Of a stretch of 64,000 nucleotides of DNA, positions 11,801 through 41,575 are shown one piece after another. Made by a program: the position numbers and the translations under genes. The first letter of the stretch is position 1; the number at the start of each line of letters is the position of its first letter. The stretch lies in assembly GCA_000934665.2 (NCBI GenBank), contig KZ538402.1, forward strand, positions 1 to 64,000, written 5' to 3'. Source of the stretch: Catajapyx aquilonaris. Taxonomy: Eukaryota. Under the pieces are notes generated by a model, which saw only the letters and a list, made by a program, of their open reading frames with translations, had not been told where the DNA came from and ran no database searches.

Positions 11801-12311
11801 AAAAAATTATATTTAATATCGACAATTCCAGTGCTGTGCAGCATGGAGCCTGACTTCGGTCCATGCCGAGGCTTCCTAACCCGCTGGTACTTCAACTCAG
11901 CCAAACGCATGTGCCTCGAGTTCACCTACGGAGGATGCCAAGGAAACGACAACAACTTCGAGTCGCAACAGGAGTGCCTCATGGCCTGCAATCCCCAATC
12001 GCAGCGCATATCGTCAACCACAATCGCACCATCGCCACCCAAGAAGGTCAGGCGAGTCAAATGCATGGTGACCCCTTGGAGCGAATGGTCACCATGTTCT
12101 GCTACATGCGGTAGGGCTTACATGGAGAAAGTACGAATGATCAAGGTAAGATGTAAATCGGAATCTAGACCCCCCCGACATTTTAACTTACCTTTAAAAT
12201 CCCGGTTCACAGGTTCGCCCACAAAACGGCGGCAAACCATGTCCGAGAAAGCTAACGAGGAGGAAGAAATGCCCAACCAAACCCTGCAACCCCCGAAAAA
12301 ATGAAGAGTGA
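5878..12311 (+). CDS. SPON1: F-spondin (spondin-1)-like secreted protein, ~675 aa: signal peptide, Spondin_N, 3 TSR, 2 Kunitz, 1 TSR; no Reeler domain
   Basis: Exons 5878-5939, 6888-6966, 7043-7249, 9717-9840, 9963-10093, 10226-10433, 10560-10731, 11015-11210, 11282-11486, 11548-11778, 11832-12145 and 12213-12311 are all GT-AG and sum to 2028 nt in frame. Motifs: MTKLRLLILLFVYRASA (signal), CCALTGAKYQLTFEGIWSRATHPRDFP, GPSPDWIVGVSGLELC, YPWDAGTDSG, WSxWSxCSxTCG TSRs, and GPCRG..RW..FTYGGCxGNxNNF Kunitz domains. Confidence 0.92.
6325..6570. repeat. AT-rich degenerate minisatellite (TATTTATGCACG-like)
   Basis: Repeated TTTATTTA/TGCAC/GTAT words in spondin intron 1. Confidence 0.6.
7312..7855. 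repeat. ~163-bp tandem units each containing a ~29-bp-stem hairpin (foldback-like)
   Basis: CCAACAAATGTTAT starts at 7355, 7517 and 7681. The hairpin 7356-7384/7395-7423 pairs at 28/29 positions. GGCGACAAAAGAGCGAATCGCAAC at ~7313 is the inverse of GTTGTGATTCGCTCTTTTGCCGCC in each unit. Confidence 0.8.
7868..8033. other. Assembly gap (N run)
   Basis: Ns in sequence. Confidence 1.
8715..9496. repeat. ~130-bp tandem array (~6 copies) with GTCY microsatellite, DINE/Helentron-like satellite
   Basis: GGATTCAGTGGGCC occurs at 8945, 9076, 9216, 9352 and 9482. Each unit has GTCCGTCTGTCTGT. Confidence 0.85.
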
Positions 12312-14307: not shown

Positions 14308-17300
14308 TCAGCTGTCCGAATACGGGTGGTGCTGGTACGGACAGTTATCGTCATTGCATTTCCCCATAAGCTCAAAGTGGCATAGGACCTGCTGCGGGTC
14401 CAGCTTGAATGACGCATCCTGTCCATCGCAGTTTCTGAAAAGGGGAAGAAGGGGGATGGCCGCAGCAACCCTCAGCTCACGTGCAGGATTTTAAACTAAT
14501 ACATCGTGTAACACTCTAAATTAAGCGTGCATATCGGCTTAGAAGATTAATATTACAACAGGTTATTACTAAGAGCATACCTGCTCGTTGGCATCACATT
14601 TTGCAATGGTAAGTGAATCGCATCAATTATTATTAAGCTCGAGTGTCGAGTGTCAGGCAGTACCTTTTCAGTACTCCCACAGGATGTCATCACTTACATA
14701 TGGGGACATAAAAGCTATCAAAGGCACCATGTGGGACGTTGGCCATTACCGCCAAGAGTGGAATCCATCGAGGGGCGAGTGGTACTTCTCCAGCTTGGGA
14801 GACGCTCCATGAAGAGAGCTGTTGGCTGCCAGGTAGGCCAGGTCGTGCGATATGGCATCCATCTCGTCGTTTATGGCGCACTCAGTCGACGCAATGGTGT
14901 CCGGGGATGTCTTCAGCTTCTTTTTTTCTTCGGAGTGAAAAAAAAAAGGCGGTTTAAAATTAAACGAACAAAAATAAGCAATGGCCAGAAACGTACCTGA
15001 ATGCTGCTGAAGCTGTGCCGTCGCCTTCCTCTTTCCCCCGACGATGCCGTTCCTTCCGCCCCCGCTCCTCAGCCACTGTGCGCTTGCGGCCACCTGTTGT
15101 ATCCTGGCTTTCATCCGGGCCACCCCACCCCTTGGCACAGTGTATCTCTGTCCTTTCAGCCGAGAGCCAACCTCCTTGCACTCGGCCACTGCTCCGACAA
15201 ACTGCGACTTGGACGTCTTGAGGTGCTCCCTCATAGTCTTCACGCTCTTCACCAGGCCAGCCACTCCCTTTTCCTTCTCTACCGCAGCATCTTCTGCTTC
15301 CAAGAGCATCTGTCGCAGATGGGCCACCCTCTCGTTCGCCTCCGTAAGCTCAGCCTTCTCCTCATGCACCTTCTTCAGCAGGTTCAGCATGGTATCCAAA
15401 CCCTCCATCACTTCATCTTTACGGCTCGCCACCTCCGCTTCTTTTGTGGTCAGCTCGTCCTCACAACTCTTGTTGGCAATGGAAGCTGCCTTGGTGTCAG
15501 ATGTGGAAGCTTTTGCGGTAGATGTGCTGGCATTAGAAGCGGCTTTGGAAATGACGGAATCCGAGATGCTGCAGAGCACACCATTACTTCCTGCGGTAAC
15601 GGCTGGGCTAGTGGTAACGGTTGGGCTAGTGGTAACCGCTGGGCTCACTCTAACAATCTCGGCTGAAGAATGCATTGCACTACATGCGAAAGTCACAACA
15701 GAAGTAATTGGGCTTGTACTGCACGAAGCAACGGAACTAGCGGTAGAAGGCGGCGTCAATGATTCAGTTTCTGTGACAGCAGGGGCAGAACTAGCATCAG
15801 TCTCGTCAGTAGAACGGGAGAGACGCTTCTTCTGCAGCCGGGTCATGACACCAACGCCTGGAGACGTCTGCAGTGTCTTCCTACGAGGCTTCCTGCGGGT
15901 CTTTGGCTTGGGTTCCTCCTCTTCAACCTTCTTCTTCTGCATGTTGGCAAGAAGCTCAAGACGAAGCTTCTCGGTATCTTCATCAGAATCTAGTGTCATC
16001 AGTTCACAACTCTCCACTGACGTCCCTAGCTTTGCCTCAAGAACCACAGTTTCAGGAATCAAGCAGACACGAGATGAAGTGTGGTCTTCCAGAATGGTTG
16101 AGCAATTAGGTGAATTGTCAGAAGCGCAAGGCAAATTCTGGATTTCCTCCCTCTTTGAATCCGCAGTCACTGGATTTGCCACTTTGTCCGGACTTGAATC
16201 ACCTTGCGTGACCGTCACGTCATTTCCTTTTCCAGTCAAAATCTTAAGAGCACTTCGGGCAGGTGCCTGTCTACCTTTCCGACGCATGTTGTTTATTACT
16301 TGGGTAGGAATCATGGAACCATTCTGACCCAGATTCCCTGCCGCTTTCACAATCTCACTCTCCTTCACACTGTGTTGTGCAATGCAAGTCGTCGCGAGTG
16401 AGGGATCGTGGACTACAGTCAGGTTTGCATTACCAGTTGAGAAGATGCGTGGCTTACTGCTGACCACATTTTGACCCAGGTTTGACACAGAGCTTTCAGC
16501 AAGTTTCTGGATATCTGGAGAATCGCTGACACTTTTCTTCACCTTCACAGCAGGGTGAGGTACCTCAGATACAAGAGAGGTCACACTCTGCGTCAAAAGG
16601 GAATCGGCAATCCAGTGTGAATCCTTCGTCACATTTTGGACCATATTCTGGGCCACACCATTAGCCCCTCTCTTGGCTGTTGACTTAGCCACATCCTCGT
16701 TCTTGGACAGCGCTTGACCCGAACCTTTCATGCCGTTCTGATGTGCAGTGGGCAACACCGCTTGCTTCAAAGCCTTCAGCGCAGAAGTCAACGAAATCTT
16801 TTCCTTTTCCTTTGAACTTAGCAAGTCTTTCAGTGAAGACTTCTGAGGTGTTTTCGGCATCTGAGACCCCTTCCTTTGAGATTTTACTGGCGTCTTCTGC
16901 GGAGAATTCTGCACTGCCTTCTGCGGAGAACTCTGTACTGTCTTCTGCGTAGAACTCTGCACTGTCTTCTGCGGAGAACTCTGCACTGTCTTCTGCGGAG
17001 AGCTCTGTACTGTTTTCTGCGGAGAACTCTGCACTTTCTGCAAAGACTTCTGCACTGCTTTCTGTGGAGAACTTGGTGCCTTCCCTGATGCACCTAGTGA
17101 TGTCTTCTGCGGAGAACTCTGTACTGTGTTCTGTGTAGAACTCTGCACTGTCTTCTGCGGAGAACTCTGCACTGTCTTCTGCGGAGAACTCTGTACTGTC
17201 TTCTGCGGAGAACTCTGCACTTTCTGCAAAAACTTCTGCACTGCTTTCTGTGGAGAACTTGGTGTCTTCCCTGATGCACCTAGTGACGTCTTCTGCGGAA

Positions 17301-20300
17301 GATTCAAGGTTGTCATTTGCAAAGAGTTTTGAATCTTCCTCTGGGCCACCTTCTGAGCTGCCTTCTGCACCGATTTTTGAGCAGCCTTCAAGATGGCTGC
17401 CTTCGGGCTGACGCTATTCACCAGTTTAACCATCTCCCTCTTGCGAATTTCCTGCTTCAAACGCTCGTACTCCACTTGCTGCGATGCGGGGAGGTGCTTC
17501 ACGGACTTTAAAATAAACACAATGGATTACAGGACTAGTTCGTACACATTCACTGATCACTATGATTTAAATAAGAAATTCTTTCATACCTTTGGTGTTT
17601 TACCAAGTTCAGAAGGAGCAGAAACCTTTGGCACGATTGCAGTTGGTTGAACCTCCGCAGAAACCTCCACATGCACAGTAGACCCATTAGTTTTCACATC
17701 CGACTCTTCCCTGCATTTCCTGAGAAGCCTCTCAATTTGGTTCTCAAGCTCGAACATGATTGGTCCTGATTTGGGCTCGGCTGGTGATGGCGCTTGATTG
17801 GGCACTAACTTCGCAATTCTCTCCGGCACGCGCTCTTCTTCGTCTTCGGACTCATCTTCACCCAAGTTTATAACAATCCTTGCAGGCTTAGAGGCTGGGT
17901 ACGTGCCATTCACCGGGGACACAGACGCAACATTCTTGCTAGAACCGCCACCCGAACAATTCTCCGGGCTGTTAGGTATGGTCACTTGGAGCTGCAGCGC
18001 ATTAATTTGGGACTCTCTAGAATGCCGGGTGTGAAAGCGGCTCTTGGAATGGAACGAACCTGACGCCTGGGCACGAACATGATGATTGCGAGACTTTGAA
18101 AGCGAGTATTGGGACTTTACTTTGTAGTCAGGCTTCTGATATGGGTTTGGACGCAGCTGCATCAGAGGCTTTGGTGGTGATTTTATTGGTGACTTCATCA
18201 GTGATTTTATTGGTGACTTTGCAAGTGACTTTGTTGCCTGCTTCAGCTGTGGCTTTGATGATGGCTTCGACTGGGGCTTTGACGGTGGTTTCATCTGGGG
18301 CTTTGATTGTGGCTTCGGCTGAGGCTTTGGTGATTGCTTCAGCTGAGGCTTTGACGATGGTTTCGGCTGGACCTTCACCTCATTCATCCCAAGGTGTTTA
18401 CTGGAATGCTCCTTCTCACTAGTACTTGGCTTCCCTGTGCTAGCCGGTAGCAACTCATCTGGTTTCACGTCCGCTTTTGGCTCAGGAATTGGCTGTGTCT
18501 TGGGTTGAAATTGCTGACTAGTCTCCGAACTTGGCTGGATCTCCAACTCCGATGGCAAGTTTGGCTTTGGCTGCATATGGGGATGCGAACTAGGTTCTGG
18601 GAGTTCTGGCACGATGCTCAGCTCAGTTTGCTTTCCATTTGAAACTGCGTCTGGAATAGGTTCGTCTGGTGGCTGCAAATTCGCATCAGTTTTCTTCGCC
18701 TCCTTCTGCTTACGGGCGATATCAATAAGCAACTGGGCCCTAAGAAACTCCTCGTCCTCGTCATTTTCCTCCTTCTTCTCTGCCTCGACTTCCTTAACTT
18801 CACCTTCAAATCCCACTTCATCCAAAACTATCAGCCCGTCTTCTTCCCACCTCTTAACACCAGGCAGGTCCTCAGAGGGGTCGTAGGGTGAGTCACCAGG
18901 AGTGGGCATGTGCGGGGACTGCATATCTGTCGGACTTGGCAAACTCTCGTCAAAATCGTCTTCAATGTCTCCCTGCTTGAGTTCCTTCTCCATCTCTGCA
19001 GCCGTCTCAGCCACCTTATTACATTCAGAGGGTGCAGGTTGCCTAGCCAGCACACCCACCTTAAAGAGCCTGACCCTCTCGTCAAGATCATTGTCACAGT
19101 CCAATTTCCTCCGCTTCGTAGGAACTTCCGAAGTGATCACTCCGGGAAGGAATGAAGCCATAACCCTAATGTTCTGGGTCAGTAAATCACCTTCCTCCTC
19201 CAAAGTCTTGTTATCCTCGGAAGCTTCGCGTATGCAACTTTGGAGGGCCAGCTTCCTCAATTCGAGCTCCTCTACGTCTTCCTCTTCCGCCACGGCCTTT
19301 TTCTCAACCTTGCTGGCATGACTATCATTGAACCTGGTTTGCTTCCTCTCATGTCTCCTTTTCCGATCTGAGTTCCTTGCAGTATCGGGCTTAGGCTTGT
19401 CCCTACTAGGGGCTCTCTTGTTCCTCTTGTTCTCCTTCCCACCCACCGCATCTGTTAGAGAGGCAACAGCCAATTAAACAGTGTTCGGTCAAGTAGTGTT
19501 ACATGGCAGGTCTGATATTGTGACAAAGGTCTACGTACATACAGTGCAAAAATACTTAATAGTCAAGAACATACTGTCACATTAAACAGAATTAAAGTAG
19601 CGCATTTTTAAGTGAAGCCCATTTTGCTTCATCATGAAAGTTGCAGAACCAACATTTCGAACACATTCATCTTTGTGACGTCTCAAGGTCCGGTTATATG
19701 GTTATATGGTAAGCCAATCACGACAAAAAAAATATTTGCCGAGAATTATCTTGGAAGCTTGAACACACTATTGCCATTCATTTAAAAAGCCAACAACATG
19801 CTGTTCGTCCTAAAGCAATCTTGCTTCAAAATGAAATGCTAACAACAAGCCGCAGCAAGCGATGTACATTCCAGAATTACAAATACAACCGCCAGTGAAA
19901 GTCAAAAGACTGCGTGTGGTCATGCAATAGCAGAGTAGACAAAATCCACACTGTCATTGTGCGAGGTAATGCATGGGTTACTTGCTACCCCCATTTCCAA
20001 AGTAAGTATTGACATGTCAACTTGGTTAAGAATGCATGATGTCAGTTGGCGGGGTCTCCGTTCAGATCAATATTCCTTTCCCCTCTTCAACGGTGACCAA
20101 GTATGGCAGGTGATGAATGAATAAATAAGTAAAACGTAGACCAACGAAACAATACGCATTTTTTGATCTAGGTTTTGTCTTTTCAACGTGCCTGCTCTGC
20201 GATCCTCACCACCATTCCAGTAACGTTCCTCATCACCGTTCCAGTAAGCAGGGATCCGAGCTGGGAGGTTCAGGTACGAGAGGATCCCAGTTTGGTTGAC

Positions 20301-21467
20301 AGTGATCCGGGGTACATACACATCACATCCATACGGGGCTGGGTAAGGGTTGCAGGCAGGAATGCAAGGAGAACACACTGCTAAGAGTGGACAAACCCAT
20401 GCAATTTTGCAGGCAGAAGAAAAAAAAAGCAAGACCGTCACCCAAAATATTGACAAAAAGCTGGTTAAAAAATTACAACAAAGTGACACCTCGACAGGAG
20501 AATTACACACAGATTACACATTAAAGACAATTTTCATGCTCTACTACGTAAACAGGATCAATGTGCGCCCAATCACACACTGACACATCAAACAAACATG
20601 CCAAGAAACCCATCAAGACAGCTCTTAGAAAAAGGCGCACCATCCACGCACATCTGTCCCCCATGCCCAAAGCTTATTTTTATTTACGAGTCCCATATGG
20701 TCTCGTCTGGCGTGTGTGTAAAAAGCCACCCCCCAACCTTTCATCTCAAGTGGCTAGCATGTGTGATGGAGAGAGTCAAGGGCTTGTCCAGCGAAAGATT
20801 GCCATGGCATCATTCTCTCCAACAGTGAACGACAAGGAATAAGTCGCCAGGCAACCCAATTCATTGTTAAAGAGAGTGACGCCATGGCAGCCTTTCGCTG
20901 GACAAAGCTTGTCCAGCGAACGTCATATTATGAAAGCAACGATGCTGAAACGACACTTGCTCTCTCCGCACACATCCGCAATTTTTTAACAGAAAATCAT
21001 TCTCATGTGTTCGCCTAAAAACGGTTGGATGTTCAACGAAATGTAATAATGAACATGCGATGAGAAGTACCTGGAGGCCTCCAGTCCCTTCCCCCGTGCT
21101 GAAACTGGCTTGGTTTCTTCCCCTCTCCCCTCCCTCCCCCCGTATCCTCCTTGCTCCTCTTCTGCGGTGATCTCCAGTCACGAGGAGGGGCAGTTCTCAT
21201 GCCCCTCCTCCGCCGGTCATCGGGGATGGTCCCCCTGAACGGAGGGGAGATTTGAGACCTCCTCCGCATGTAGTGACGGTGGCCGGAAATGATCGGGGGC
21301 GGGGGCGGGGAGGGAAGGGTTTCAGGGGGGCGGGAAGAAGGTGGAGGGGACGAGGAAGTGGGGGGTTTGGCCACCTCTTCGACCAACTCGCCATCCGAGT
21401 CCTCAATCTCCCCTTCTTCAGGGCCCTCATCCTCACTTATGCTCTCCACTTCCATCGACGACATCAT
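14308..21467 (-). CDS. ZFC3H1: ZFC3H1/Red1-like PAXT scaffold, ~1690 aa, ending just after the C3H1 zinc finger
   Basis: Exons 21467-21071, 19451-17590, 17505-14997, 14927-14750 and 14434-14308 give 5073 nt in frame; there is a possible cassette exon at 20338-20192. Motifs: N-terminal EEGEIEDSD, ELRKLALQS / EFLRAQLL helices, HLPASQQVEYERLKQEIRKRE, a coiled coil, YHSPLDGFHSWR, and LDPQQVLCHFELMGKCNDDNCPYQH (zf-C3H1). The likely non-coding first exon has its donor at 26815. Confidence 0.85.
16880..17300 (-). repeat. Coding 24-bp repeat (TVQSSPQK) with a 186-bp higher-order duplication
   Basis: CCCTGATGCACCTAGTGA occurs at 17083 and 17269. The translation has 11 SPQK motifs. Confidence 0.95.
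20192..20338 (-). other. Putative 147-nt phase 1-1 cassette exon of ZFC3H1 with GC donor
   Basis: Pyrimidine tract plus CCCAG acceptor, an open frame (APYGCDVYVPRITVNQTG...RRA), a CAG|GCACGT donor, and a length divisible by 3. Confidence 0.4.
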
Positions 21468-24410
21468 CTGTCCAAGAGTAACACACTAATCCGGGAATTC
21501 CTAGGAGGAAGAGAAATAGTTCAGTTCTTCAGCACATCAGGCTTACTCGTAACAAATCGGGCACCCCAATAAATCTGTCACCGCATCACTTGCAAATCCC
21601 GAATTACTACATATGTGCGGATAAGCTATATAAGAAATTATGTGCAAGTCACATTACTGATAACAGTTAGTTCAAAGTGTAAGCTTCCATATCAATGCAC
21701 AAGAATAAGGCAACATGTATATAGACCCTTGCACAAGTTCAAGATGAGAGTAACTATGAGGCAGAAATAAATGTGGTTAGTTCCACCGCCTTCTACGTCT
21801 AAGGTCGAACAGGTATTTCTTATGTGAAACGAGTTCTTGCTACATTTGCTTATGTTTTCCCCTTTCCTCGCCACAATCGCAATCTATCAGTATTAATGCT
21901 TAAATAAAATCAGGTCACGTAAAGACAGAATCCATCCCTGTATTGATTTCTTGAGTGCATTTACATCACATTATTGTCCGCACTGTCATAGATACATAAA
22001 AATGTGCACATGGCAAACAAATTGTTACAAAAATAATAAAACATATCTGGATATCATTATTGTAGCAACATACATCAGAACTCCCGAAATTAATTTTTGG
22101 GTCTGGCAATTACAATTGCAGATAAAACCAATAATAGAGACATGATAAACGATGGGCAAAAAAGTCATCCAAATACTTTCAGGAGATATTAACATATGAT
22201 CTGGCAGACTTATGCCCGATTGCACAAACAGAAATGAACGATCCGATAGATCCCAATAGAGAGCCCTTTTAACATGTGCTAACGATCTGTTAGGAGCTAT
22301 CGAATCGGTAATTTCCTTGGTGCAATCAGGCATTACGGCAACAAACTAGCAATACAAAATTGTTCGCTATTTGTTGCACTTCTTTGTTAATTGGTACATT
22401 TAACCTGACTTCAACCTCACGTGCCACATGTTTCAATCGAGCAGTAAAAGGCTACACAAAACATTACAAGTCTTCACGCTGCAATTCAATCTCAAAGTGT
22501 CCATTGCCCTAGGTGGCCAACTATTACTTCACAAGCACTGCATTTATTGGCAGTCACTTGCACTAGCCTTGCTATTTTTCCTGCGGCTATTTCTATAACA
22601 AGACCTGGGCAATTTTTCAGAAAGCGTGAAAAAAAAAAAAAAATGCTCAGTCACCTCTCGCTCCACGAAGAGTCTAAATGATGGTTGTGTCTCCTCAACA
22701 CATCTAGTCACAGCAATAAACTTGTTGACAATGTACAAATGTGAAGGTGCTATGCTACAACACAACAAAGTAGCACTTCATATGGTTGGTGGAGCACACG
22801 GAATATTCCAATTATAATACTTACTACTATATGGTACATTATTCACATTATTTAGTGTCAACTGACTGTATTTTGCATGCTGTTGAGACGGCTGGTCATA
22901 TGATTAATGGAAGAGAAGAAAAACATCCCCAAGCCGTCATCCCAACATATTATGATCGGATAAGAAACAGGTCCGTGTGTGAGAGTTAACTTATTTTGAA
23001 AGTCAAAAGTCCAATTGCCCTGTGGCCACAAGTCAATTATTTACATCCAAATATTGCAGCATTCAAATAACCTGTGTACCATTAATCATGGCTCTACTTA
23101 CATAAATTGTGTTCCAATTGGCCTACTCTCGGACCATGGGATCTGGTCATACTCTGTAACAGCTCCCACCATTAGTCAGAGATAGTTCATCACTTTTTTT
23201 ATATATAATCTCAATACTATCACCTTCTGATAACTAGTGCGATAACAACATCATACTCTGAACATGCTTCAGTTTAAAAGTGTAGGCTGTAGACAATGCA
23301 GCGATTAATTTTTGAATCATGCTGATTGTACCCATCCTCCCTACCCCTTTGTTTCTGTAAACTACAATGTACATAAATTATGAATGATTAAACACTGTAT
23401 GCAGTAGTGTCCCTCAGTGGATTAAAACACTGAGGCTAAATAAATTGACGATTGAAAAAAATGAGCCTACGATTACGCTTACAAAATATTTTACCAATCA
23501 TTCCAATAATCACATACATTTAAAACACTGAACACTGCTGTTCAAGTGGTATCACCAACTATACAGTGCATTGTATTTTCCACCAAGCACATCCCCATTG
23601 CGACTCACTAAGCAGATCACATGCATCGATTTCGTAAAGACAACAGAATATTACTCGGGAGAAAGTGCAGGTCTAAACTTAGCCCGCAGCACAGTTGTGT
23701 CTTCTCACAACTGTACTCTGTAATGAGGGCAACCTACAGGAAAAGTTATGGCAACCTGTGCAACAGGAATGTACCAGCAGTGCAATTCCATATCGTCAAT
23801 TGCTATTGTGTCAGCTGATATGTCCCCGTGCATGTGCACATTTCACACAGTGGCTTCAAACTGCTGATGAACATATCGGCTCAGTGTATCACAATTAGCT
23901 CATGCAATGTTGCATTGTTCTTGACACTGCAATCGCAGCGTTATAAGACCTGTCAGAGATTCAGCTAAGCTCAAGTGCTGTCATGGAATTTCAATGTATA
24001 TGGGTCAAAAGGTGGCATGAGAATGCTAAGAATGTGCTGACTTGTGAGCGTCACTGACCGGGGTGAGCCAAACAACACTCAGGACAAAACAGCCTCATAA
24101 AACTTGATCTTTAGAACTTCCCATAATGAACATGTTGAAATGTTCCTTAATGTGGCAAAGGGATATGATGCAGACTCTATCAACCCATGCCTCTGAATCA
24201 TTTCCCGCTCTGATTATGCTTTCCTGCCTTAAACGTCAGCCTTTTTCCATATATCCTTGTTACAACGTGAAAAGCCATGTATGATCAAAACTGCTTCGTT
24301 ATTAGTAGAACCAATAATTTCTACTCTTGTTTAAGAGTTTAATAGTTTATTATGACTACTTGTAATGTATTGCATGTAATTATCTCATAAAACACCAGAT
24401 GAAAACACAT

Positions 24411-24486
24411 TGGGTGGAATTTTCGTCCCACTGCTAGTTACTGATAAGTTAGCAGTAATTAGCAGTGGGACGAAAAATTCAACCCA
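24411..24486. repeat. ~76-bp near-perfect palindrome
   Basis: TTTTCGTCCCACTGCTAGTTACTG ... CAGTAATTAGCAGTGGGACGAAAA pairs at 23/24 positions, plus outer TGGGTGGAA/TTCAACCCA. Confidence 0.85.
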
Positions 24487-25495
24487 TTGTAACTAGTGGG
24501 ACTTACAAGTTTAAATCATGCAGATATGAGCACACGGCACTAGGATTTCTTACGACTCTGAATCTCTTTAGTCGCTCAAGGAAAATGTCGGAAAGAAAAC
24601 CTTGACTACTGTGCATGATAAAACATAAAGCACTATTTTACTATTCCAACTATTCATTAATGTGCAGATATGGGTAAAAAACATGTGCAAAACAATATTT
24701 CATGCCTATGGGAGGTGCACATGAACAAGTGATGGCCAACCACTTCACATAATCTAAAGGTGGGAGGAAAAAATCCCAAGGTTAGTATCACGCCTGAATT
24801 ATTCATCATGACAAGAATATTTCTATGGGAACTTAGCTACAATGTTGCATTACTTTATTTGCTGAGTAAAGCAAGAAATCTGCACTTCCCCCCAACTATC
24901 GGTAGAGTGAGATAAATCAACACATGGTCATTTCTATGTACACATCTGGGGTGAAATTTTTGTTGCCTTGTTGGGGTTAGCCTAAATGTACACATTCTTT
25001 ATGTTCATGTCAATACTCGAGACCTTATCCTTTTCTACAAAACTGCTTCGTCACATCTTCGACACAGATGTCGACCGCCCTGCCATACAATGTAACATGT
25101 TTGGCGCAGCATAGCCATGCTTTTCCGCCACTAAAAGGCAAGTCAATCAATCATCCCATCTTTGAACACAGCACTTCTTTCTCCTTGCTCTTTACAGATC
25201 AGCTTTTAAGCATGTAGCCTCCAATAGGAATAGGTGCTCAACAGTGGTCTGGCAATCTCTGCCAGCTCCGTAACGCAGGTGAAAATTTCACATCTGTTAA
25301 TCCCCATCCAAAGGGATAGGTCGTACAGTATTCGCATTGTAATCCAAGGTCAAAAATATCGGGTCAGTTAAATCACCATGTTAAAACATAAAGTACCAAC
25401 ATATGATGTTTTATCAACTTTAACACCATGAGTATGTTGCTGTTGCAGTGTTACATAACATTTTGATACCTAAAATGTAAACCGCAAAACATTAA

Positions 25496-26009
25496 CCCTT
25501 TGAGGGCTACGTGCCTCATATGAGGTCCTGCGGGTTTTTGAACTGGGCGCGCTAGGATTTAGACAGAAATGGCGCAGTTTGAAGCTCAAACTGCTCCTAC
25601 CGCCTCGTAGAAGGGGGCTCAACTACCATGGTTTATGCTAATAAATTTTTCTGCCTTCCAGCGTGAGCTAAAAATACCACCTCCTGTGTCAGAACATGGT
25701 GTGGCGTAAGTCTGGACTCTTAGGAATTTCTCATAGTACAGTGTTTTAGTATGATTTTGTCACCATAGCAACAATTTTACAGTGACTTTAAAAATTTAAA
25801 TAAATTTAATTACATTTAAAGTTAAATGCACTTTAAAAAAATTTATGGAACATCCTGTAGATGATTTTTTTTCAGCATTTTACATTCAAAGGGACCACCA
25901 CAAGTTAAAACGGTCAATATTGGGAGCACATTCTTTTCCATTAATATCACTCTTACTATTTTCATCAAAAGGAAAAAAAAAACGGCCCATAAAAACCACC
26001 GTCAAAGGG
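25496..26009. mobile_element. piggyBac-like non-autonomous element
   Basis: TTAA|CCCTTTGAGGG ... CCGTCAAAGGG|TTAC: terminal inverted repeats with a TTAA-like target. Confidence 0.65.
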
Positions 26010-26037
26010 TTACAAGAGCATCACACATCTCATGAAA

Positions 26038-26108
26038 CATCAATTTTTAATGCTCTTGTGATGCTTTTTTGTTGCTAAAAAGCATTAGAAGAGCATTAAA
26101 AATTGATG
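26038..26108. repeat. ~32-bp-stem palindrome
   Basis: CATCAATTTTTAATGCTCTT ... AAGAGCATTAAAAATTGATG with inner ATGCTTTTT/AAAAAGCAT. Confidence 0.8.
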
Positions 26109-26177
26109 GTCCTTGAGACGAGTCTTTTAACATTTCGAGGTTTTGCAGTGTACACAATTTATATTTGGAAAAAAACA

Positions 26178-26470
26178 CCGAACCATTGGTGGCGGAGGGG
26201 ATATGGTATCCGACTGCTAATCGGGAGGTCCTGGGTTCTAATCCCGGTTCCGGAAACTCTAACTGTGGTTTTCCTCCAGGAGAATTCCGGAGTTGTTTCC
26301 TAAACTAATAGGCCACAGCCGCCTCCTTCCTTTCCTATCCTATCCCAAAAAGCGCAGTAAAAAAACGAAGCGAGGAGTTCCAGTCAAAACAAAAAAATAT
26401 CCCCCCTAAAGAGTCGCCGGCTGATAACGGGGTATGAATTATTGTTATTATTATTATTATTATTATTATA
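26178..26470 (+). mobile_element. tRNA-derived SINE
   Basis: A-box TGGCGGAGGGG (26190), anticodon-like arm TCCGA-CTGCTAA-TCGGG, B-box GGGTTCTAATCCC (26233), body GGCCACAGCCGCCTCCTTCC, and an (ATT)n tail. Confidence 0.75.
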
Positions 26471-26809
26471 ATATTTGGAAGAACACAAAATCAATTTTGT
26501 CCCATACGTGGAATGCTATTCCCAACACATATTGTGTGGGTTTTTTCCCCCCACTTTGGGCCAATATGCGCAAAACCAAAAGATTCCAACGGAACAAAAT
26601 TTTCATCCCAGCCAAACCCCCCAAAGAACATTTCCTCTACTCTTAAAGGAGCAGGATAAACCTTGTTGGAACTTTTTTTCCCCTTCCATCTTTTTTTGTC
26701 CCTTTCTTCTTTTGTGCCCAATAATTTCCCCATCGTCACCACAACAAACCCTTGCTTAACGACTCCCCCCCACAACAATGAGAGCTTTCTTTTTTTTATT
26801 ATTATTTTT

Positions 26810-27474
26810 CCTCACCCTCTTCGTCTGCCCGACTCTCCTCGACGATACCTCCGAGAAAAAACACAAAAACCCTGAAACGCGAAGCACTACCCACGACGAA
26901 CGGCCGCCATCTTCGAACTACAATCGAACAACAACTGACGGAATAAAAATATTCTCAGAAATAGAACAACTGGTAATTCCACCAAAAAAACACCAGATGA
27001 CAGCAGCGGAAAGGGGCGGAACGAGGTCGAAAGAAACGCAGCGGCTGACCCAACCAAATGGCTACATACGCCAATTGGATAATTAATGCAAATTTGCATC
27101 AATTAAAAATGTGCTTACAAATATAGTAAATTATGATGTACATCGCTGATTGTATGTGTAGTACCCGCACCGGATCAAACATTGATGAAATTAGACGAAA
27201 ATTGGTAGCTACATTTTAGCAGTTAACATAATAGCTGCGATTTAACAAGGGCGCGTTCGAATCGGCTTTCAAGGACACACATAAATTTGGCAAATTTCTT
27301 CGCATATCGCATTAATCGCAATTTCTGTGGATATATTCCACTGTTTTAATTATAATTGTGGTTAAATTTGGCATTTGTACTGATTTTTTCGTGTAACTTT
27401 TGGCCTGCTTTTGGCTAACCCGGTTTAGTGTACTTGGCTTCGTAGTGTGCTTGGGCGTGTCCAGCGTGGGCCAC
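26810..27474. promoter_or_regulatory. Likely bidirectional promoter of ZFC3H1 (-) and GTF3A (+)
   Basis: Minus-strand donor AGG|GTGAGG at 26815, YY1-type GCCGCCATCTT at 26903, and head-to-head geometry. Confidence 0.55.
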
Positions 27475-28649
27475 ATGGACGACCAGAAAAAGAGGCATAA
27501 ATGTACCTTCGAAGGCTGTACGGCCGATTTTCTGAAGCCGGATCGACTGAAGCAGCACATCAGGGTCCACACAGGAGAGGTAGTCACACTGAGTTTTAAT
27601 TTAAAGCTTTAAAAATGTAATTAACATATGTATCAACAGAGACCGTATGTGTGTGAACATGCTGATTGCGGTAAGAGCTACACACGTGCGCACCATCTGA
27701 ATCGGCATGTGGCTCGTGTACATACAGCACGTACGTACACCCCGGTTCTGCAGTGCAACCAGTGCGACGGCACGTTCATGACGCAGCAGAAGGTACGGGA
27801 ACATATTGAGCGAGTTCATGCCGAGACGCGCTACACTTGCATGACATGCAAGTGCACGTTCAGGAAGCATCGTAACCTGCAAGAACATGCATGCACCGGT
27901 ACGGAGAGAAAGGCGTACAAATGCAAGCATGATGGGTGCGGGAAGGTGTTTCCACATTTGTCACGATTGGAGCGGCATGAGAAGAAGCATACGCCCCAGT
28001 CGTACGACTGCCCCGAGTGCGATGAGAGTGGATTCAGGGGTTGGAATATGCTGAGGGCTCATAAGAAGCTGGCTCATCCGAAATGTAAGTGTGGCATTGT
28101 GCTCACAAATGTGTGTTAACTGTACGCTCCATAGGTTTCGTCTGCGCAATATGCAACAAGAACTTCAGGTCCAAGTCCAACTTGCGGATACACTCGGCCG
28201 TCCACTCGCAAGAGCGGGAGGTCTTCCACTGTCCAGCTGAACATTGCCCAAGGTAATTTACAAGCATTGTGTATGTATCAGCTATTTCAATCAACAATCA
28301 TTGCAGGTACTACTACAAAGAATCCAGCCTGAAGCACCACATCAGTTCAAGCCACGAGGGCAAGCGCTTCCCCTGCCTTTTCCCAGACTGTGGACGTGAA
28401 CTCTGCTCCAACCAGAAGCTGAAAGAGCACATGAGGCTGCATGACCCAGCATGGCATCCGAAGCGGAAGCCTCCAAAGAAGAACCGTGCGCCTCGTAAGG
28501 ACAAGGGAATTCCAAAGCGGTGCATGGCAGCCAAGATGGCCGGAGTGGCCATCCCGTACGAGAAGGAAAAACAGGACTTGCAGAGGTGGAAAGTCCTGGT
28601 GGACGAGGTCAGCGATAGCGACACAGATAAAGGGGCAATCGCAGTGTAG
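27475..28649 (+). CDS. GTF3A: Transcription factor IIIA, nine C2H2 fingers, ~336 aa
   Basis: Exons 27475-27579, 27640-28084, 28135-28252 and 28307-28649. Nine consecutive fingers (CTFEGC...HIRVHTGERPY through CLFPDC...HMRLH), FRKH in finger 4, and a C-terminal RAPRKDKG..MAAKMAG motif typical of invertebrate TFIIIA. Confidence 0.88.
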
Positions 28650-28736
28650 ATTCATCCAAGGAAAACTCCCAGTGATGCGACAGGGCGGAATTAATAAAAA
28701 GTATCTAATAGTACGACAGGTGTATTTTATAACACA

Positions 28737-29082
28737 CTCGCCGAGGAGCCTGTTCTTTGTTCAGCCTGTTTCCATCAACAGCCATCATTGCAGTTGACGC
28801 CATGGAAATGCTGTTGCCATGGACAAACAAACACGTAATCATCACCATGGAGATCCGTTGCTATGGACAAACAACCGTTGCCATGGAGATCCGTTGCTAT
28901 GGACAAACAAACGTTGCCATGGAGATCAATTGCTATGGACAAACAACCATTGCCACGGAGATCCGTTGCTATGGACAAGCAACCGTTGCCATGGAGATCC
29001 GTTGCTACGGACAAACAAACGTTGCCATGGAGATCCATTGCTACGGACAAACCAATGAACTTTGCCTTTTATATACGTAAGA
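28737..29082 (-). mobile_element. Non-autonomous Helitron with internal 36-bp tandem array of RFX X-box motifs
   Basis: Minus strand starts a|TCTTACGTATATAAAAGGCAAAGTT and ends CAAAGAACAGGCTC...CGAG|t. About 6.5 copies of CCGTTGCCATGGAGATCCGTTGCTATGGACAAACAA. Confidence 0.7.
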
Positions 29083-29142
29083 TTATATTATTTCCAGTGC
29101 ACTTAGCATGGTGTCTAGTCCTTATAGCACAAGAGTTGAACT

Positions 29143-29857
29143 TCATGAAGGCTTCTTGAGAGGCATCATTTGAAACCTGATTTCATTACCCTTCATCCTT
29201 TTCTGGACAATTTTTGCATCTTCTTTCGCATTAGCTTCGACGGTCTTGAACACACTTTCCTGCAATGAGATTGTCCGGGTTTTTACTACAATGGTAGAAA
29301 CGTTTGTAATGTAAGTTACGGCTTACGGCAGCTTCTGGGTTTCCTTCTTCTCCGGCGATTACGACCCTTACGGTGCTTCCCTTCTCGATCCACTTCTTGG
29401 CCTGCTTCATCTTTATATCCAGGTCGTGCGGACTGATCTTCCACTTGAGCGCAACCATCTTCTCCTTCCCAGCGTCCGTCGTCGTTCCTCCTCCTCCCTG
29501 CTTCAGCACCTCCCTCTTCGCCACCAGCCTGTACACCGGCAGATCCGTCTTGAACCTGGGACCACCTTCCTGCTCTCCTTCTCCTTCCACCATCTCCATC
29601 CCTCTCCTCTTGGCCAGTCTCCCACCTTCATCAAAGGTCATGGCAGTCACCCTCTTCTCCTGCAGCAACAGTATTCGTGGGGAGGAATCCTTCTTCGGGC
29701 CCTGTGCCGCCTTCCTGCCCTCACTCTGGGTGTTCCGCTTAGCCTCATCCTGCCGCCGCACGCAACACCCGTGCAGCACACGGCCTTCAAGTCGGTACAC
29801 AGCACGAATCACGCGCAATGACGAAGGTACTATGGCCGCCGCCATGTTGGTGGCCAT
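29143..29857 (-). CDS. MTIF3: Mitochondrial translation initiation factor IF-3, ~215 aa
   Basis: Exons 29857-29327 and 29259-29143. Arg-rich presequence-like N-terminus, PVYRL, and the IF3 C-domain signature KISPHDLDIKMKQAKKWIEKGSTVRVVI. Confidence 0.88.
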
Positions 29858-30073
29858 GTTGCCCCCTCCAATGCTGCCAATCCACAGTTACACACCGAGG
29901 CTAAAAATAGCATAGCAGCTTAACGTGTTGGCTTCCCTGCTCCAATATACACTGCTATGCTATTTTTTGCCTGGGACACTTCACAACACATTGTGTGTGT
30001 TGAATTATTTTGCTGTAATTAGAGCTGTAATTGCTCGACTAATTGCAGTAATTTGTAAGCATCTAAGCCAGCA
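29858..30073. promoter_or_regulatory. 216-bp bidirectional promoter between MTIF3 and Tim8
   Basis: Divergent ATGs at 29857 and 30074. Confidence 0.7.
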
Positions 30074-30402
30074 ATGAGCGAAGAAGAAGGGGATAGGGAG
30101 CTGGCGGATTTCCTGACTGTGGAGCAGCAGAAGGCGCAGTACCAGTCTCATGTAATGCATCGGTTTGCGTTGCGGCGGGTACTTTTTTTTATGTCAATAA
30201 TTATAATTATTTTTTTCTCAATTTGAAGGTTCATCGCTTCAATGATGTTTGCTGGGAGAAGTGTGTGGAGAAGCCGGGGAACAAGCTGGATAGTAGGACC
30301 GAGTCGTGCATTTCCAACTGCGTCGAGAGGTTCATAGACGTCTCGTTGCTCATTACCAACAGATTCGCGCAGCTCTTGCAGCGAAGTGGATCTGGAATGT
30401 AG
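30074..30402 (+). CDS. TIMM8: Mitochondrial import chaperone Tim8, 83 aa
   Basis: Exons 30074-30151 and 30229-30402 encode [72 protein letters not shown], with the twin CX3C motif. Not in the ORF track. Confidence 0.95.
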
Positions 30403-30921
30403 CTGATCACTGTTCATTAAAATTTAATTTGTTCGAAGAGTGTACGCTGTCCCCTTATTGCCTGTAATTGGAATTACAGATTTCCCAGTACGGTACAAGT
30501 CGTATCGAGTGTAATGTACATACGATTCGCCCAGTGGTGATCATCGCTGAGCAATGATTTCATTGCTCAGCGATACTTGCCACCGAGCAAATTACTCGCA
30601 TGTAAACACCGCCTAAAGAATTGCCATGTGAAGAACCGGGAGGACGCCAAATAGAAGAAGAAAAAAAAGCGCATGTGAATCATGCCGATCATTTTATTTG
30701 TCATCACATCATAACCATATAACTGAGGGTGTATTGCTATCACCGTGGCCATTACTTGCGGAGGGGGAGGGGAGAAAACACCCTTGATATAATTAATATC
30801 GAAACAGTAAACAGCTGGAATGAGGCTCCTCTCTCAATAAAAGGAGCTAAATAATAATAATACATTTGTTGTGTATTTATATGTTAGTGATTATTTCGTT
30901 AGCACCATTTTTGTCGCACGT

Positions 30922-33900
30922 TCAGTTACGGTGCATCGGAGGAGTTTGCTTCAGTTGCAAAATGATGGACCTCATGCGCGACACATCTTTGCTGTGCTTG
31001 CTCGCTTTTGGGTTGAAGTCGCACAGCTTCGCAATGCGTTCCCACTCCGTCCCTGGTTCAACCACGTCCGCCTCTGCGACCAGATCTTTCTCCGCGTTCC
31101 TGTACCGCCAAATAAGTGGACAAAATTAGCAACAAGTTACAAATGTAAAGGCCATCACGACTTACTTTGCAGCCTCTCTTTTGTTTGCCAGAAGTAAAAA
31201 ACAATAACACAATTTGTTACATCATGCATGACAATGCGTACATCTTAACGTAGGCTTACATCAGCAAAAGTTTGTTTGTTTGTCCATGGCAGCATGTACC
31301 ACGGCAACGGGTCTTTTAAAAAATTACAAGTGTCCACAGGCTTATGATACAAAAGCAATTTAGTCAAGTCCACATACGTATAGCAATTGCCTGGAATTTC
31401 CTGGAACTACAGGAGAATCCAGGAATATGTGTGGGTGAACGTTACCTGTTAGCGGCCTTGTTCTTGGCGATCTGCTCTTCGTGGTGCTTGTACCACTCTT
31501 CCAGCTCCTTCTTGGCGGCGGCTCTCAGCTCGTCCTTTTTCTTTTCCTCTTCCGCATCTGTCAAAGATTCGGTTTAAAAAAAAATTACTGGTTGTTGCAA
31601 TGGGCACAGACGTATGGCTGTGAAGACTCACCCTTTTTTTCAAGGCATTTCATTTGCTCCTCTCGCCACAGCTTGATCTTTGCGGGCTCCTCACGAGGCG
31701 GCGCAGGATGAGCGATCTCTGCGGAAACAATTGGATGTTGTAATTTCTGGTGTGACGGACTTTTTGCTGCGGATCCTCAGCTGGTTAGTGATCCAGGGAC
31801 ATTTGTGAGTGTAAACATGCACTGAATGGACTGACACAACAAATATTTGGCTGGGATATGTGACTATTCCATAAACTGATGTTTGCATGACCACAGCAAA
31901 CCTTACATCGGTTAACCATAACAACAACTGCTGAACACCAAATCCACTGCTATGCTAGAAGTGTCCTACATCTTTTTACTCACCCCCATTCATCTCTCCG
32001 CTTTCCGGTCCATCGTCAGAATCTAATCACAGAGATTGCATAAATTAGTATGTCGTCGGCAGGGGTAGGACAGGGTAAGGTCTACGAAACACATGCAATG
32101 GAACCTCTTTGCATCGAAAAATTCCACTCGTCTACAAGAAAATTCACGGCCTTTTCTCAAATCATATGATGACTCGTCTGGGCTGCCATGAGCATATTTA
32201 CGCGCAAACTCGTTTTGTCTAACAACGATATTGTTCCTGGATCAATTAGGCTTGTTACATGCGCTTCCTGCAGATGTGAGAGTAGACCATGAGGTGATTT
32301 TTCTCCTAGAGAAAATCTGCGAGATCGAAAGTCATATTGAATCACAAATCTGAATTGCACATTTACCAAGTACAATTAATTCTCATTCTCTCAACTATGA
32401 CCAGAGCGTACAAGGTACAGAGAGTACAAAAGACCTCACAGTAAAACTATCGCAGAATAAGACAAAACCCCAAGTACGTGTAACTACCCTTTCAGTATCA
32501 TTGTGCTGTGTGGATGAAAAAGGTCCAACTGCCACAGGAAGGGTGCAACACAATATTGGCAAAAAAATAAAATGGTGCACACTAAAGCCCACATGCTTCT
32601 TGCCATGAACCTTTTCAAAAAAAAAATCATTAACTACTCGCATAATAATTATTTTTTGGTTGCCATGTAATGCTACACACCTCTACGCTGCTCTTTCCCA
32701 GCATCGTAGTCATCGTAAGTGATGTGTGGAGGAGCCATGTCTCCGCCCAAGTTGTCAATCATCTCGAAACTGCCCAACTGGTCCGTTTGTCCCGCAGCCA
32801 TGAAATCGTCTACGGGGGGGCGCCAGAGGTAGTAAAAGGGGCATGCGCAAGGAATAAACGAGCACAAAAGAAATAACAGGCCATCACAAAAAAAATTAAT
32901 AAAAGAAAAAGCGCATCTACATTACATGCACTCTCCACATGACTCGCACCTGTCACATGCATTTGCACATCTTTTACTTACCACTCACTAAACACACATT
33001 TTCATTTGATATCGCAGGTACTTTCAAACATGTTCCGTACGTCATTTAGTCTTGATTGCCTTTTACATAACTAAGTACTTTTTTTCTGTAAGTACTTTCT
33101 ACCATTTAACAAAAACAACGTTCCTTGCAACTTAGCCCAGATATGCCTGAATTTTTTTTTGGTTTAATTTTTCTCATATTTTTCCTTTTTTTTTACCCTC
33201 TGGGATAACATAAGATAAATATTTTTCTATTTATGTTCAAATGAAAACCTAATACAGTTGAATCCAGATATAAAGACTTCAAGGGACTGCGGAACAATGT
33301 TATAACCGAGGTCGGTTATAGCTGAATGTTTGCAACGAATAAACGAAGTTTCCTGCTTTCCACATGCTTAAAACGCACACTACTGCATACTGCTTAATAA
33401 AATCCATGAAAAAACACAACATTGGCGCATCAAAAAATTATGTAGGACCAATAAAATCCGAAATTTTCTTCTGCCGTCTATTTTTTTTTGCCAATTTTAT
33501 ACCTGAAAAAGCATATTTTCACTCCAGCAGGCCAAGAAATGTTCTGTTATAGCTGCAGTGAGGTGAAAATGAGTATGTTATATCAAGAGTAAAAATATAC
33601 AGGGTCTTATGAAAGTTTGCCGGCCTTTCGAGTCTGTTATAATCCAAAGTCCGTTATAGCTGAGGCTATTATATCAGGATTCAACTGTATTTTAATGCTA
33701 TTTAATTAGTATTTCTAATATTCTTTTATTTTTTTCCTGAACCCTCAGGGGTAACAAAAAGATTATAAATACATACTTTTATTTTTATGTGCAAATGAAA
33801 AACTAACACTATCTAATTTATCTAACATCTGTACAAATTTGTACATCTAAATTCTAGGTTCTAATTTCTAAAGTATTACTGGGTAACCATTGCTTGGCAA

Positions 33901-34233
33901 ATCTGAGTTAAGTAATGAGAAAAATACCATAACGTTCTGAAACCTTTCCCAAAAAATAATTTCATAAATCGCATAATTCAGTGCCAACAAGTCCCACCTG
34001 CACAATAAGATGGGGGAGAGACGAGGGATTAAGCACAACAACAACAACCGGTCAGGTCCCCTCTGGTGCTACGTGCAACACTAACCTTGCTGGATCTGGC
34101 TAACCGGTGCAACAGCCGGTGTCTCATTCTGTTGTTCTCCGAGATCATCCTCCAAGCCTGCCAGCTGGTCCTGCTCTCTGGCCAGGAATTCAGCCGCCGG
34201 ATCAGCCTCGAAGTTATCCGCAAAACCGTCCAT
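30922..34233 (-). CDS. Clc: Clathrin light chain, ~230 aa (+4 aa with microexon)
   Basis: Exons 34233-34086, 32809-32681, 32022-31984, 31718-31632, 31557-31446, [microexon 31177-31166] and 31099-30922. Motifs: DPAAEFLAREQDQLAGLEDD, EEPAKIKLWREEQ, KELEEWY, PGTEWERIAKLCDFNPK, KDVSRMRSIILQLK. The 5'UTR exon donor is at 35259. Confidence 0.95.
31166..31177 (-). other. 12-nt microexon of clathrin light chain (adds EAAK)
   Basis: Minus strand reads caaaag|AGAGGCTGCAAA|gtaagt. It is phase 2-2 and turns ANR-NAEK into ANR-EAAK-NAEK. Confidence 0.75.
31243..31345 (+). mobile_element. Short degenerate copy of the X-box Helitron family
   Basis: AAAAGTTTGTTTGTTTGTCCATGGCA...CCACGGCAACGG is shared with the copies at 28737-29082 and 57813-58495. 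Confidence 0.5.
33255..33687. mobile_element. Tc1/mariner (pogo/Tigger-like) MITE
   Basis: TA|CAGTTGAATCCAGATATAA ... TTATATCAGGATTCAACTG|TA, with internal GTTATA subterminal words. Confidence 0.85.
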
Positions 34234-35895: not shown

Positions 35896-37033
35896 ATGGT
35901 AAGAGATGAGCGCAGAAGTACAGTTAATGCCGGCTTAAACTTTTGCTTCATACGTGATGTTGGTGTGACAATAATTTCAGTCCAACCCCCCTGTGGACGC
36001 CGGAGGAAAGGATAATAAGGTCGACGGGGAGGCCGAAAAGCAAGGTCTGCTGAGGTCAGCCGCTGCCGGACTCACCTCTCATGCCTACACACTCGGTGAG
36101 CATCGCAGCGCACGTAAATTATTATTAAAAAGCTAGCAGTAGAGCCCGTTCTCATAGCACAGCCGTTGCCATGAGACCATTCCATTGTAAGCTGTTGCCA
36201 TGGACACCATTGGAACAAGACAGCTGTTGCTATGGACACTGTACACACGAGACTTGCTATGAAGACTGTTGCCATGAGATTGTAGCCACGAGACTGTTGC
36301 TATGGACACTAGCCATGAGACCACTCCATGGGAAGCTGTTTCCATGGACACAGTTGGCACAAGACCGTTGCTCTGAAACCATTGCTATGAGACCGTTGCT
36401 ATGAGACCGTTGCTATGAAACCTTTGCTATGAGACCGTTGCTATGAAACCTTTGCTATGAAACCTTTGCTATGAGACCGTTGCTATGAAACCTTTGCTAT
36501 GAAACCATTGCTATGAAACCTTTGCTATGAAACCATTGCTATGAGACCGTTGCTATGAAACCATTGCTATGAGACCGTTGCTATGAAACCATTGCTTTGA
36601 AACCATTGCTATGAGACTATTGCTTTGAAACCATTGCTATGAGACTATTGCTTTGAAACCATTGCTATGAGACTATTGCTTTGAAACCATTGCTATGAGA
36701 CTATTGCTTTGAAACCATTGCTATGAGACTATTGCTTTGAAACCATTGCTATGAGACTATTTCTTCCTGCCTCTAAGCTACTACTAAGGCTGTCTACGAT
36801 AATAATTATGAATTTTTTACCAAACAAATTGTTAAGAGGATCGATCGTCAGTGCTGTTCTAATTATGAGGCTGCTGATTGTTTTTTGAAATTTTTCCAGG
36901 CACGAGCGCCCTGTGGCTTGGCGTGGGGACGGTGAAATGGGCAGCTTCCACCACCTACAACGTCGGGACTGGGGTCGTTACTAAAGCGACCGGGATAGTC
37001 AGAAAGTCGCCTGGGAAGGACAAGAGCGACTGA
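35896..37033 (+). CDS. TMEM263: TMEM263 (C12orf23/UPF0444)-like small membrane protein, 83 aa
   Basis: Exons 35896-35898 (ATG|GTAAGA), 35981-36095 and 36900-37033 splice in frame to MSNPPVDAGGKDNKVDGEAEKQGLLRSAAAGLTSHAYTLGTSALWLGVGTVKWAASTTYNVGTGVVTKATGIVRKSPGKDKSD*. The Gly/Val/Thr-rich core and terminal KDKSD match the family as recalled. Confidence 0.8.
36160..36762. repeat. 14-bp tandem array (ACCRTTGCTWTGAR) in TMEM263 intron 2
   Basis: Degenerate GTTGCCATGGACAC-type units grade into homogeneous 14-bp units and 28-bp dimers. Confidence 0.92.
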
Positions 37034-40800: not shown

Positions 40801-41575
40801 TATGAAGTGTTGGAGTGACTCAATCTTTGAGATGTGTGCGGCACTAACAATGTGAGATGTACGACATCCAACTGGACACGTGTAAGCTGCAATCAGACTC
40901 TGTGAAACTGTTCAAAGCTTTCGCACACTAATATAATTATGATTTGTGGAATTCTTGAGTTCGGCTTGATACTACCGATTAGGAAACAGACCAAAGAACT
41001 GTAAGCTGCAGTAACGTACACAGCCAGTAAATTAAAATGGAGTAAACTTCCTGCAACAGTTAATAAGCCAATGTAAAACAGACTCAAATGAAGAAGCTCA
41101 CTTTTTGAAAGGATGTCAATTTTATGCAGCTCAGTGCCATCATCGCCATCGATTACTCTCTTGCTTTTCTTCCCTCCTCCTCCTCCGCCTTCTTTCTCTT
41201 TACTGGCACCAGCATGTAGGTTCCTGCTTGCCAGAAGGTCCAGCACCTGCTTGGCCAGGTTGCATAGGAAATCCACCTTGCGTCCATACACATGCACAGA
41301 CGCCTGTACCAAAAGAGCTGCCTCCGCAAAGTTCATGGTGCCCTGGCCATCTTGGTACACTATGTCCTTGTCCGTTATCATATGTATGTATGTTTCTAAT
41401 ATCTGCATTTCAAAATAAACAGACGTTAAATTAAAATGAATCGGTGGCATACAAGCAATACGAGGTGAAATAAGTTAGCGCTTACATGGGCAACATCAAT
41501 GTCCCAATTCTTCGTGAGGTCACGCACTGGATTGAGCAGCTCTGCAAACCGCTTGTCTGTCAATTCCTGCGACAT
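37881..41575 (-). CDS. NCAPH2: Condensin-2 complex subunit H2 (kleisin beta), ~717 aa
   Basis: Exons 41575-41486, 41402-41102, 40214-40037, 39842-39715, 39519-39074, 39010-38725, 38660-38257 and 38201-37881 give 2154 nt. Motifs: RFAELLNPVRDLTKNWDIDVA, MNFAEAALLVQASVHVYGRKVDFL, FDIHEYG, EVHRYFLSILQLANTYNLEI. Confidence 0.93.

Follow-up and report, generated by a model that had tools for sequence, protein, structure and literature searches.

The window, which is the whole stretch of DNA analysed here, comprises 64,000 nucleotides of Catajapyx aquilonaris (contig KZ538402.1, positions 1 to 64,000). In it a TFIIIA-like gene on the plus strand (27475-28649) and a gene for mitochondrial IF3, MTIF3, on the minus strand (29857-29143) converge, with exactly 493 bases between the two stop codons. 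The features of the locus are the following:

27475-27579, plus strand: TFIIIA-like exon 1 with start codon, finger 1 and TGE linker (from sequence and X1 splice joint)
27640-28084, plus strand: TFIIIA-like exon 2 with fingers 2-6, finger 4 ending in H-x-C and not in H-x3-H (sequence, X1 joint)
28135-28252, plus strand: TFIIIA-like exon 3 with finger 7 and the beginning of finger 8 (sequence, X1 joint)
28307-28649, plus strand: TFIIIA-like exon 4 with fingers 8-9, basic tail, KRSLAS-like motif and stop codon (sequence, X1 joint)
28693-28728, plus strand: predicted poly(A) signal of TFIIIA, AATAAA at 28693-28698, a CA about 20 bases on as presumed cleavage site, then GT/T-rich
28726-28731, minus strand: TATAAA, distal candidate poly(A) hexamer of MTIF3, facing the TFIIIA signal 27 bases apart
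28845-29052, no strand: tandem repeat, 36-bp unit, 5.8 copies, of a dispersed repeat family
29068-29073, minus strand: TATAAA, proximal candidate poly(A) hexamer of MTIF3, about 70 bases past the stop codon, with a GT-rich stretch downstream
29143-29259, minus strand: MTIF3 exon 2 with the end of the C-terminal domain and the stop codon (X1 joint, profile match)
29327-29857, minus strand: MTIF3 exon 1 with a basic presequence-like N-terminus, N domain, linker and most of the C domain (PDB, Pfam, homologs)
30074-30402, plus strand: small Tim gene, TIMM8-like (PF02953, E 8.6e-20; X1 contigs)

The first-pass annotation had described a convergent TFIIIA and MTIF3 pair with stop codons 493 bp apart, and gene models, spacing and splice joints all agree with this. 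The joints come from the contigs of run X1; 12 of them were placed on 26500-32500 and their joints match all four predicted introns of the two genes. Since the contigs are spliced, the run implies RNA. As read from the sequence, the TFIIIA-like gene has GT-AG introns of 60, 50, and 54 bp and 336 codons plus stop, and MTIF3 has one GT-AG intron of 67 bp and 215 codons plus stop. No other gene was seen within the 493-bp spacer.

The minus-strand gene can be firmly assigned, on the strength of its similarities, as the ortholog of mitochondrial IF3. All five top matches in the PDB are mitochondrial IF3, exon 2 matches an arthropod mtIF3 profile with a probability of 98%, and the Pfam families IF3_C and mIF3 match the protein below the cut-off. 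Eighty-three homologs were found; the 30 that were looked up are named IF-3, mIF3 or uncharacterised, and the 14 of these with a species name are from 13 arthropods and 1 chiton. A word-index search returned no homolog among 125 candidates. Exon 1 as query of the contigs of the genome matched only itself. The N-terminus is basic and poor in acidic residues and may be a mitochondrial presequence. A quick tree of the 83 homologs was weakly supported and left out the protein of the window; it was set aside. The single intron (29327) is found at the same position in the insect-like metagenome loci L002-L007 and L010, and the gene calls of many mtIF3 proteins in the databases run into the intron at that same position.

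Nine tandem C2H2 fingers are characteristic of the TFIIIA class, and nine are present in the plus-strand protein, eight regular ones and an irregular fourth (C-x2-C-x12-H-x-C); C-x4-C spacing occurs in fingers 1, 2, 5, 8, and 9. The irregular finger 4 with its H-x-C end lies at about 27830-27890; finger 4 of Xenopus TFIIIA is a 5S RNA-binding finger. In a comparison of exon 2 with the PDB, Xenopus TFIIIA (1tf6) ranked first of 102 sequences, and fingers 2-6 aligned finger for finger and in register with its residues 41-183. TFIIIA-like residues are kept in fingers 4-6 of this alignment, including the finger 6 tryptophan; we assume that these residues have a role in 5S RNA binding, and a literature search for such a role found nothing. 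The best single stretch reached 62.3 bits for TFIIIA vs 39.3 for ZNF568, whereas the E-values for the whole sequence were nearly equal (2.4e-21 vs 2.7e-21). Behind finger 9 follows the motif KRCMAAKMAG, which by eye resembles the KRSLAS activation motif and is identical to the quoted consensus at 4 of 10 positions and similar at 4 more (PMC6991959; here and throughout, papers are cited for those parts of them that were accessible).

Other searches would fit a different multi-finger protein. In the Atlas, TFIIIA clusters came 8th and 9th of 30 for the zinc-finger protein, with low recognition value; the word-index homolog search gave two generic zinc-finger proteins and no TFIIIA among 49 candidates for exon 2, and no homolog and no TFIIIA among 43 candidates for exon 4. 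Exon 4 by itself was not diagnostic for TFIIIA against the PDB. The family PF22110 matched exon 1 weakly (profile positions 1-11, E 0.026, 14.9 bits, cut-off 27), and the gene was absent from the 10 matches of PF22110 in the contigs of the genome; both results stand beside the fact that intron 1 splits the PF22110 region in this gene. Three of the 10 matches were examined as controls and were generic zinc-finger arrays for which TFIIIA ranked 23rd, 38th or was absent, and so behaved unlike TFIIIA. The best match of PF22110 in the genome was rejected as a generic Krueppel array. The zinc-finger exon has at least 144 further matches in the genome, many in tandem clusters (e.g. C404, C290, C1679), which represent a large Krueppel-type expansion; exon 4 as query matched only itself. 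Judged by its sequence features, the plus-strand gene is very probably the ortholog of TFIIIA (GTF3A).

Between the stop codons, the predicted AATAAA of TFIIIA is canonical and located 44 bases past the stop codon. On the minus strand no canonical AATAAA or ATTAAA was found in 28300-29200, only the two TATAAA variants. The plus-strand AATAAA (28693) and the distal minus-strand TATAAA (28731-28726) face each other, and downstream of each, on the strand concerned, the sequence is T-rich. Of the 104 AATAAA sites of the window, 5 have a hexamer that faces them at a distance of 15-40 bases; this layout was noticed post hoc. With the distal TATAAA the 3' ends are predicted to overlap by 10-20 nt, with the proximal one not at all. 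If the proximal ends are used, the two UTRs can form no perfect duplex longer than 6 bases, and folding of the long UTR option was no better than that of shuffled sequences (z -1.17). None of the contigs covers 28711-29112; the TFIIIA contig stops at 28687 and the MTIF3 contig extends to about 29113. This gap carries no weight concerning the 3' ends, because transcript ends cannot be read from the contigs, which also break at repeats. The spacer repeat has 22 further matches on other contigs of the genome with 65-89% identity. The window contains several repeats rich in CCATGG and in words like GTTGC, at 28845-29052, 31280-31310, 36224-36761, and 57915-58434. A search of Rfam with 24000-34000 found nothing.

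Upstream of MTIF3 the small Tim gene, whose subfamily name TIMM8 is our assumption, is arranged head-to-head with it, with 216 bases between the start codons (29857-30074). Two mitochondrial genes are thus likely to share one two-way promoter, and for any co-regulation of MTIF3 at this locus small Tim is a better candidate partner than TFIIIA. A clathrin light chain gene (minus strand, 30402-32020; spliced joints 31098/31445, 31557/31632, 31718/31984) converges on small Tim, and facing ATTAAA hexamers are located between these two at 30416 (plus) and 30423 (minus). On the other side of the pair, a minus-strand motif at 26903-26913, which we take to be a YY1 site, coincides with a few contigs at 26.7-27.1 kb. 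Motif and contigs could be where the large minus-strand gene at 14746-21485, presumably ZFC3H1-like, begins; with a first intron of great length, this gene would then stand head-to-head with TFIIIA. Further genes of the window encode condensin II H2, a tetraspanin, an aspartyl protease (presumably BACE-like), a spondin with Kunitz domain and a protein that we take to be ionotropic-receptor-like (coordinates, as one list: 40893-41474, 52905-53444, 56748-57743, 11783-12304, 61251-63511); a piece of the last-named gene had no match in Pfam.

According to the first-pass annotation GTF3A and MTIF3 are immediate neighbours in human as well. This part is borne out in print; we take the human genes to be arranged tail-to-tail, like those of the window, and to overlap at their 3' ends. 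The window differs from the human locus in the repeat between the stop codons and in an overlap that is only predicted. At human 13q12 the order is RASL11A, GTF3A, MTIF3, LNX2 (figure legend, PMC13734240), so that both genes are direct neighbours as in the window, and synteny has also been described for teleosts (PMC6991959). In cattle GTF3A and MTIF3 are found in one 0.5-Mb interval (PMC8520274). Zebrafish mtif3 lies near gtf3aa, whereas most teleost gtf3aa copies, in which the activation motif is present, have lost the ancestral neighbours (PMC6991959).

A survey of the adjacency across animals had been proposed, and the two other invertebrates that were looked at, Nematostella and Drosophila, were negative. 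UFM1, PIBF1, ATP7B, OBI1, ALG5, VPS36, and NBEA, which we take to be genes of human chromosome 13, are all contained in one ordered run of Nematostella gene models. The same run holds TF3A-like-1 (NV2.3166) and the sole row named IF3 (NV2.3024), 142 gene models apart and hence not adjacent; TF3A-like-2 is NV2.2474 (table of PMC10946136, in which the identifiers follow the genome order and the gene names are automatic best hits). We read this as an old chromosome-level linkage of the TFIIIA and IF3 candidates without adjacency. For Drosophila we assume that CG9609 is TFIIIA and that CG9609 and CG13163 are located on different chromosomes. The gene numbers of the two are not adjacent in the sources available (PMC5354226, PMC12262857), and such a missing adjacency is to be expected, since flies keep only 46 of the catalogued ancient pairs (PMC3514665). 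A scan of metagenomes gave 9 MTIF3 loci from 109 stretches, with no zinc-finger or small-Tim match in any of the 9; these loci carry no weight, because only 0.2-2.2 kb follow the match, which is too short. In a prokaryote collection none of 14 stretches was positive.

The best explanation for these observations, and one to which we give a somewhat better than even chance as a whole, is an ancient inherited adjacency that was passively retained by two genes with separate promoters. TFIIIA and MTIF3 would have been ordinary single-copy housekeeping genes on one ancestral chromosome and would already have been neighbours in the bilaterian ancestor. The pair would then have stayed tail-to-tail in vertebrates and in the slowly rearranging arthropod genome of the window, with a separate promoter for each gene and, most likely, a separate poly(A) site as well. 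Since at most a few hundred bases separate the 3' ends, the target for a harmless break would be very small, and the pair would be lost once such a break occurred between the genes. The genes would thus stay together mainly because both are essential and hardly any break between them would do no harm. What we infer in this account is that the adjacency is of common ancestry, where the poly(A) sites lie and that retention is passive. In favour of passive retention counts the tolerance of the spacer for a dispersed repeat; moreover, convergent pairs that are conserved are few and show no excess of related functions (Davila Lopez et al., PMC2871058). Against it, the facing minus-strand TATAAA could be a shared two-way poly(A) element and hence an active constraint, and zebrafish gtf3aa and mtif3 have been described as similarly transcribed in every case (legend, PMC6991959).

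We considered several other reasons why the two genes could be found together. First, the inherited pair could be held by a mechanical lock at the 3' ends, in our view the main rival, though a doubtful one. In this case a shared two-way polyadenylation element would exist in which the A-rich signal of each gene is the U-rich downstream element of the other, and the repeat would be situated inside the 3' UTR of MTIF3. A break between the genes would damage both mRNA ends because the element is shared, and 5S rRNA would not have to be linked to mitochondria in any way. The facing hexamers 27 bases apart, their layout at 5 of 104 sites and the lack of a canonical minus-strand signal in the region searched are in accordance with such a lock, as is the presumed overlap of human GTF3A and MTIF3. 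Overlaps on opposite strands are also common in human, 2,980 genes being part of a convergent or divergent one (PMC6746723). However, the 5% that the layout amounts to is a post hoc figure, and the proximal TATAAA would make a 430-base UTR through the repeat unnecessary. A purely mechanical link without any coupling of 5S rRNA and mitochondria would fit the facing TATAAA and AATAAA, and we regard it as possible but doubtful.

Second, the two genes could have met by chance. In this case they would share an ancestral linkage group and would have been shuffled independently into the tail-to-tail arrangement in vertebrates and in this lineage. Two given genes, chosen beforehand, would end up tail-to-tail by chance with a probability of 3e-5 in the whole genome (15,000 genes) and of 2.5e-4 to 1e-3 if they share a chromosome with 2000 to 500 genes; up to about one pair of this type is expected in each genome. 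The separation of the genes in Nematostella and, judged from gene numbers and the map positions assumed, in Drosophila would fit independent shuffling. The same holds for the surroundings: none of the printed human neighbours besides GTF3A and MTIF3 was recognised in the window, and clathrin light chain, condensin H2, tetraspanin, aspartyl protease, and spondin differ from them. Yet chance re-formation of 0.07-1.2 such pairs per genome compares with 3-30 inherited ones, giving, with inputs that are all assumed, a posterior of 0.71-1.0 for ancestry, and inherited pairs outnumbered chance pairs under every input set tried. The few catalogued pairs left in flies take further weight from the separation in Drosophila. 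We therefore consider chance unlikely. It is more likely that the adjacency was inherited from the bilaterian ancestor, with two lineages as the basis of this statement; of the earlier statement that the microsynteny has been kept since the protostome-deuterostome split, the inherited origin is upheld at this strength, and the absence of the adjacency from Nematostella and Drosophila speaks against it.

Third, it had been suggested from the lack of a shared promoter that a 3'-end or antisense constraint links 5S rRNA supply to mitochondrial translation initiation. The output of TFIIIA and mtIF3 would then be coupled through 3' ends that overlap or are antisense. 5S rRNA has been reported in mammalian mitochondria and is exported from the nucleus with TFIIIA, and mitochondrial translation falls when factors for its import are lost; mammalian mitoribosomes, however, contain a tRNA and not 5S rRNA (all PMC6468882). 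One human variant is an eQTL for both GTF3A and MTIF3, in different tissues, but editing this variant in cells altered the mRNA of MTIF3 and not of GTF3A (PMC10023155). The similar transcription of the zebrafish genes would agree with a coupling; on the other hand, housekeeping genes presumably co-vary anyway, and the loss of the neighbours by most teleost gtf3aa copies that have the activation motif argues against it. A short overlap is possible at the locus of the window as predicted, yet the proximal ends would leave the 6-base duplex only. In fungi, TFIIIA is partnered instead with RPB6, and head-to-head (PMC2871058). Together with the missing functional enrichment among convergent pairs and a spacer that tolerated a dispersed repeat, these results give the suggestion no support, and we regard such a functional link as very unlikely. 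Equally hard to credit is a combination in which a two-way poly(A) element, of which the facing AATAAA and TATAAA of the window would be the visible remainder, has locked the genes together ever since the bilaterian ancestor and competition at this element couples TFIIIA to mtIF3; if true, this coupling would be a deeply conserved 3'-end switch balancing the cytosolic and the mitochondrial translation systems. Finally, that the zinc-finger gene encodes another multi-finger protein, the likeness to the human locus being superficial, is highly improbable in view of its nine fingers, the in-register alignment with TFIIIA and the motif behind finger 9.

Old neighbourhoods of unrelated genes have been catalogued by the hundreds. 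The CAMPs are a catalogue of 595 ancient non-paralogous pairs, of which 54.8% are head-to-head in human, and orientation is fully kept in only 15-25% of the non-head-to-head classes (Irimia et al. 2012, PMC3514665). Like these, TFIIIA and MTIF3 are unrelated genes that lie close together, with little intergenic DNA, in bilaterian lineages far apart from each other; CAMPs are four or fewer genes apart, and the present two are direct neighbours. Unlike most CAMPs, which are head-to-head or belong to blocks of developmental genes, the pair of the window is convergent and consists of two housekeeping genes with tiny introns. CAMPs also require at least four major metazoan lineages, whereas TFIIIA-MTIF3 is shown in two, the window and the vertebrates. 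In 14 fungi, TFIIIA has likewise long been situated beside one housekeeping gene, RPB6, but there the partner is a different one, the orientation is divergent and a functional link exists through RNA polymerase III (PMC2871058).

The pair table of the latter study lists TFIIIA with fungal RPB6 and holds no row for IF-3, and TFIIIA-MTIF3 is absent from the conserved-pair tables that could be searched (PMC2871058, PMC7530604); Table S2 of Irimia et al., which was outside this search, may list it. The supplements of PMC6746723 (one small file), PMC8809688, and PMC11136973 gave no match to the pair, the orthology table of PMC11136973 apparently being outside these. At the level of listings, the literature searched contained no description of the pair outside vertebrates.

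TFIIIA-MTIF3 is a real pair and probably an old gene neighbourhood of a well-known kind, and not a sign of joint function. As it stands, the pair is one among hundreds of such neighbourhoods. If it is ancestral, a pair that in the literature searched has so far been described only in vertebrates would reach back to the bilaterian root, and a class made up mostly of head-to-head pairs would gain a convergent one of housekeeping genes. Whether 3'-end entanglement alone can hold genes together for hundreds of millions of years is a question for which convergent pairs are the test case, and the compact locus of Catajapyx with its two candidate poly(A) sites makes it accessible to 3'-end mapping.
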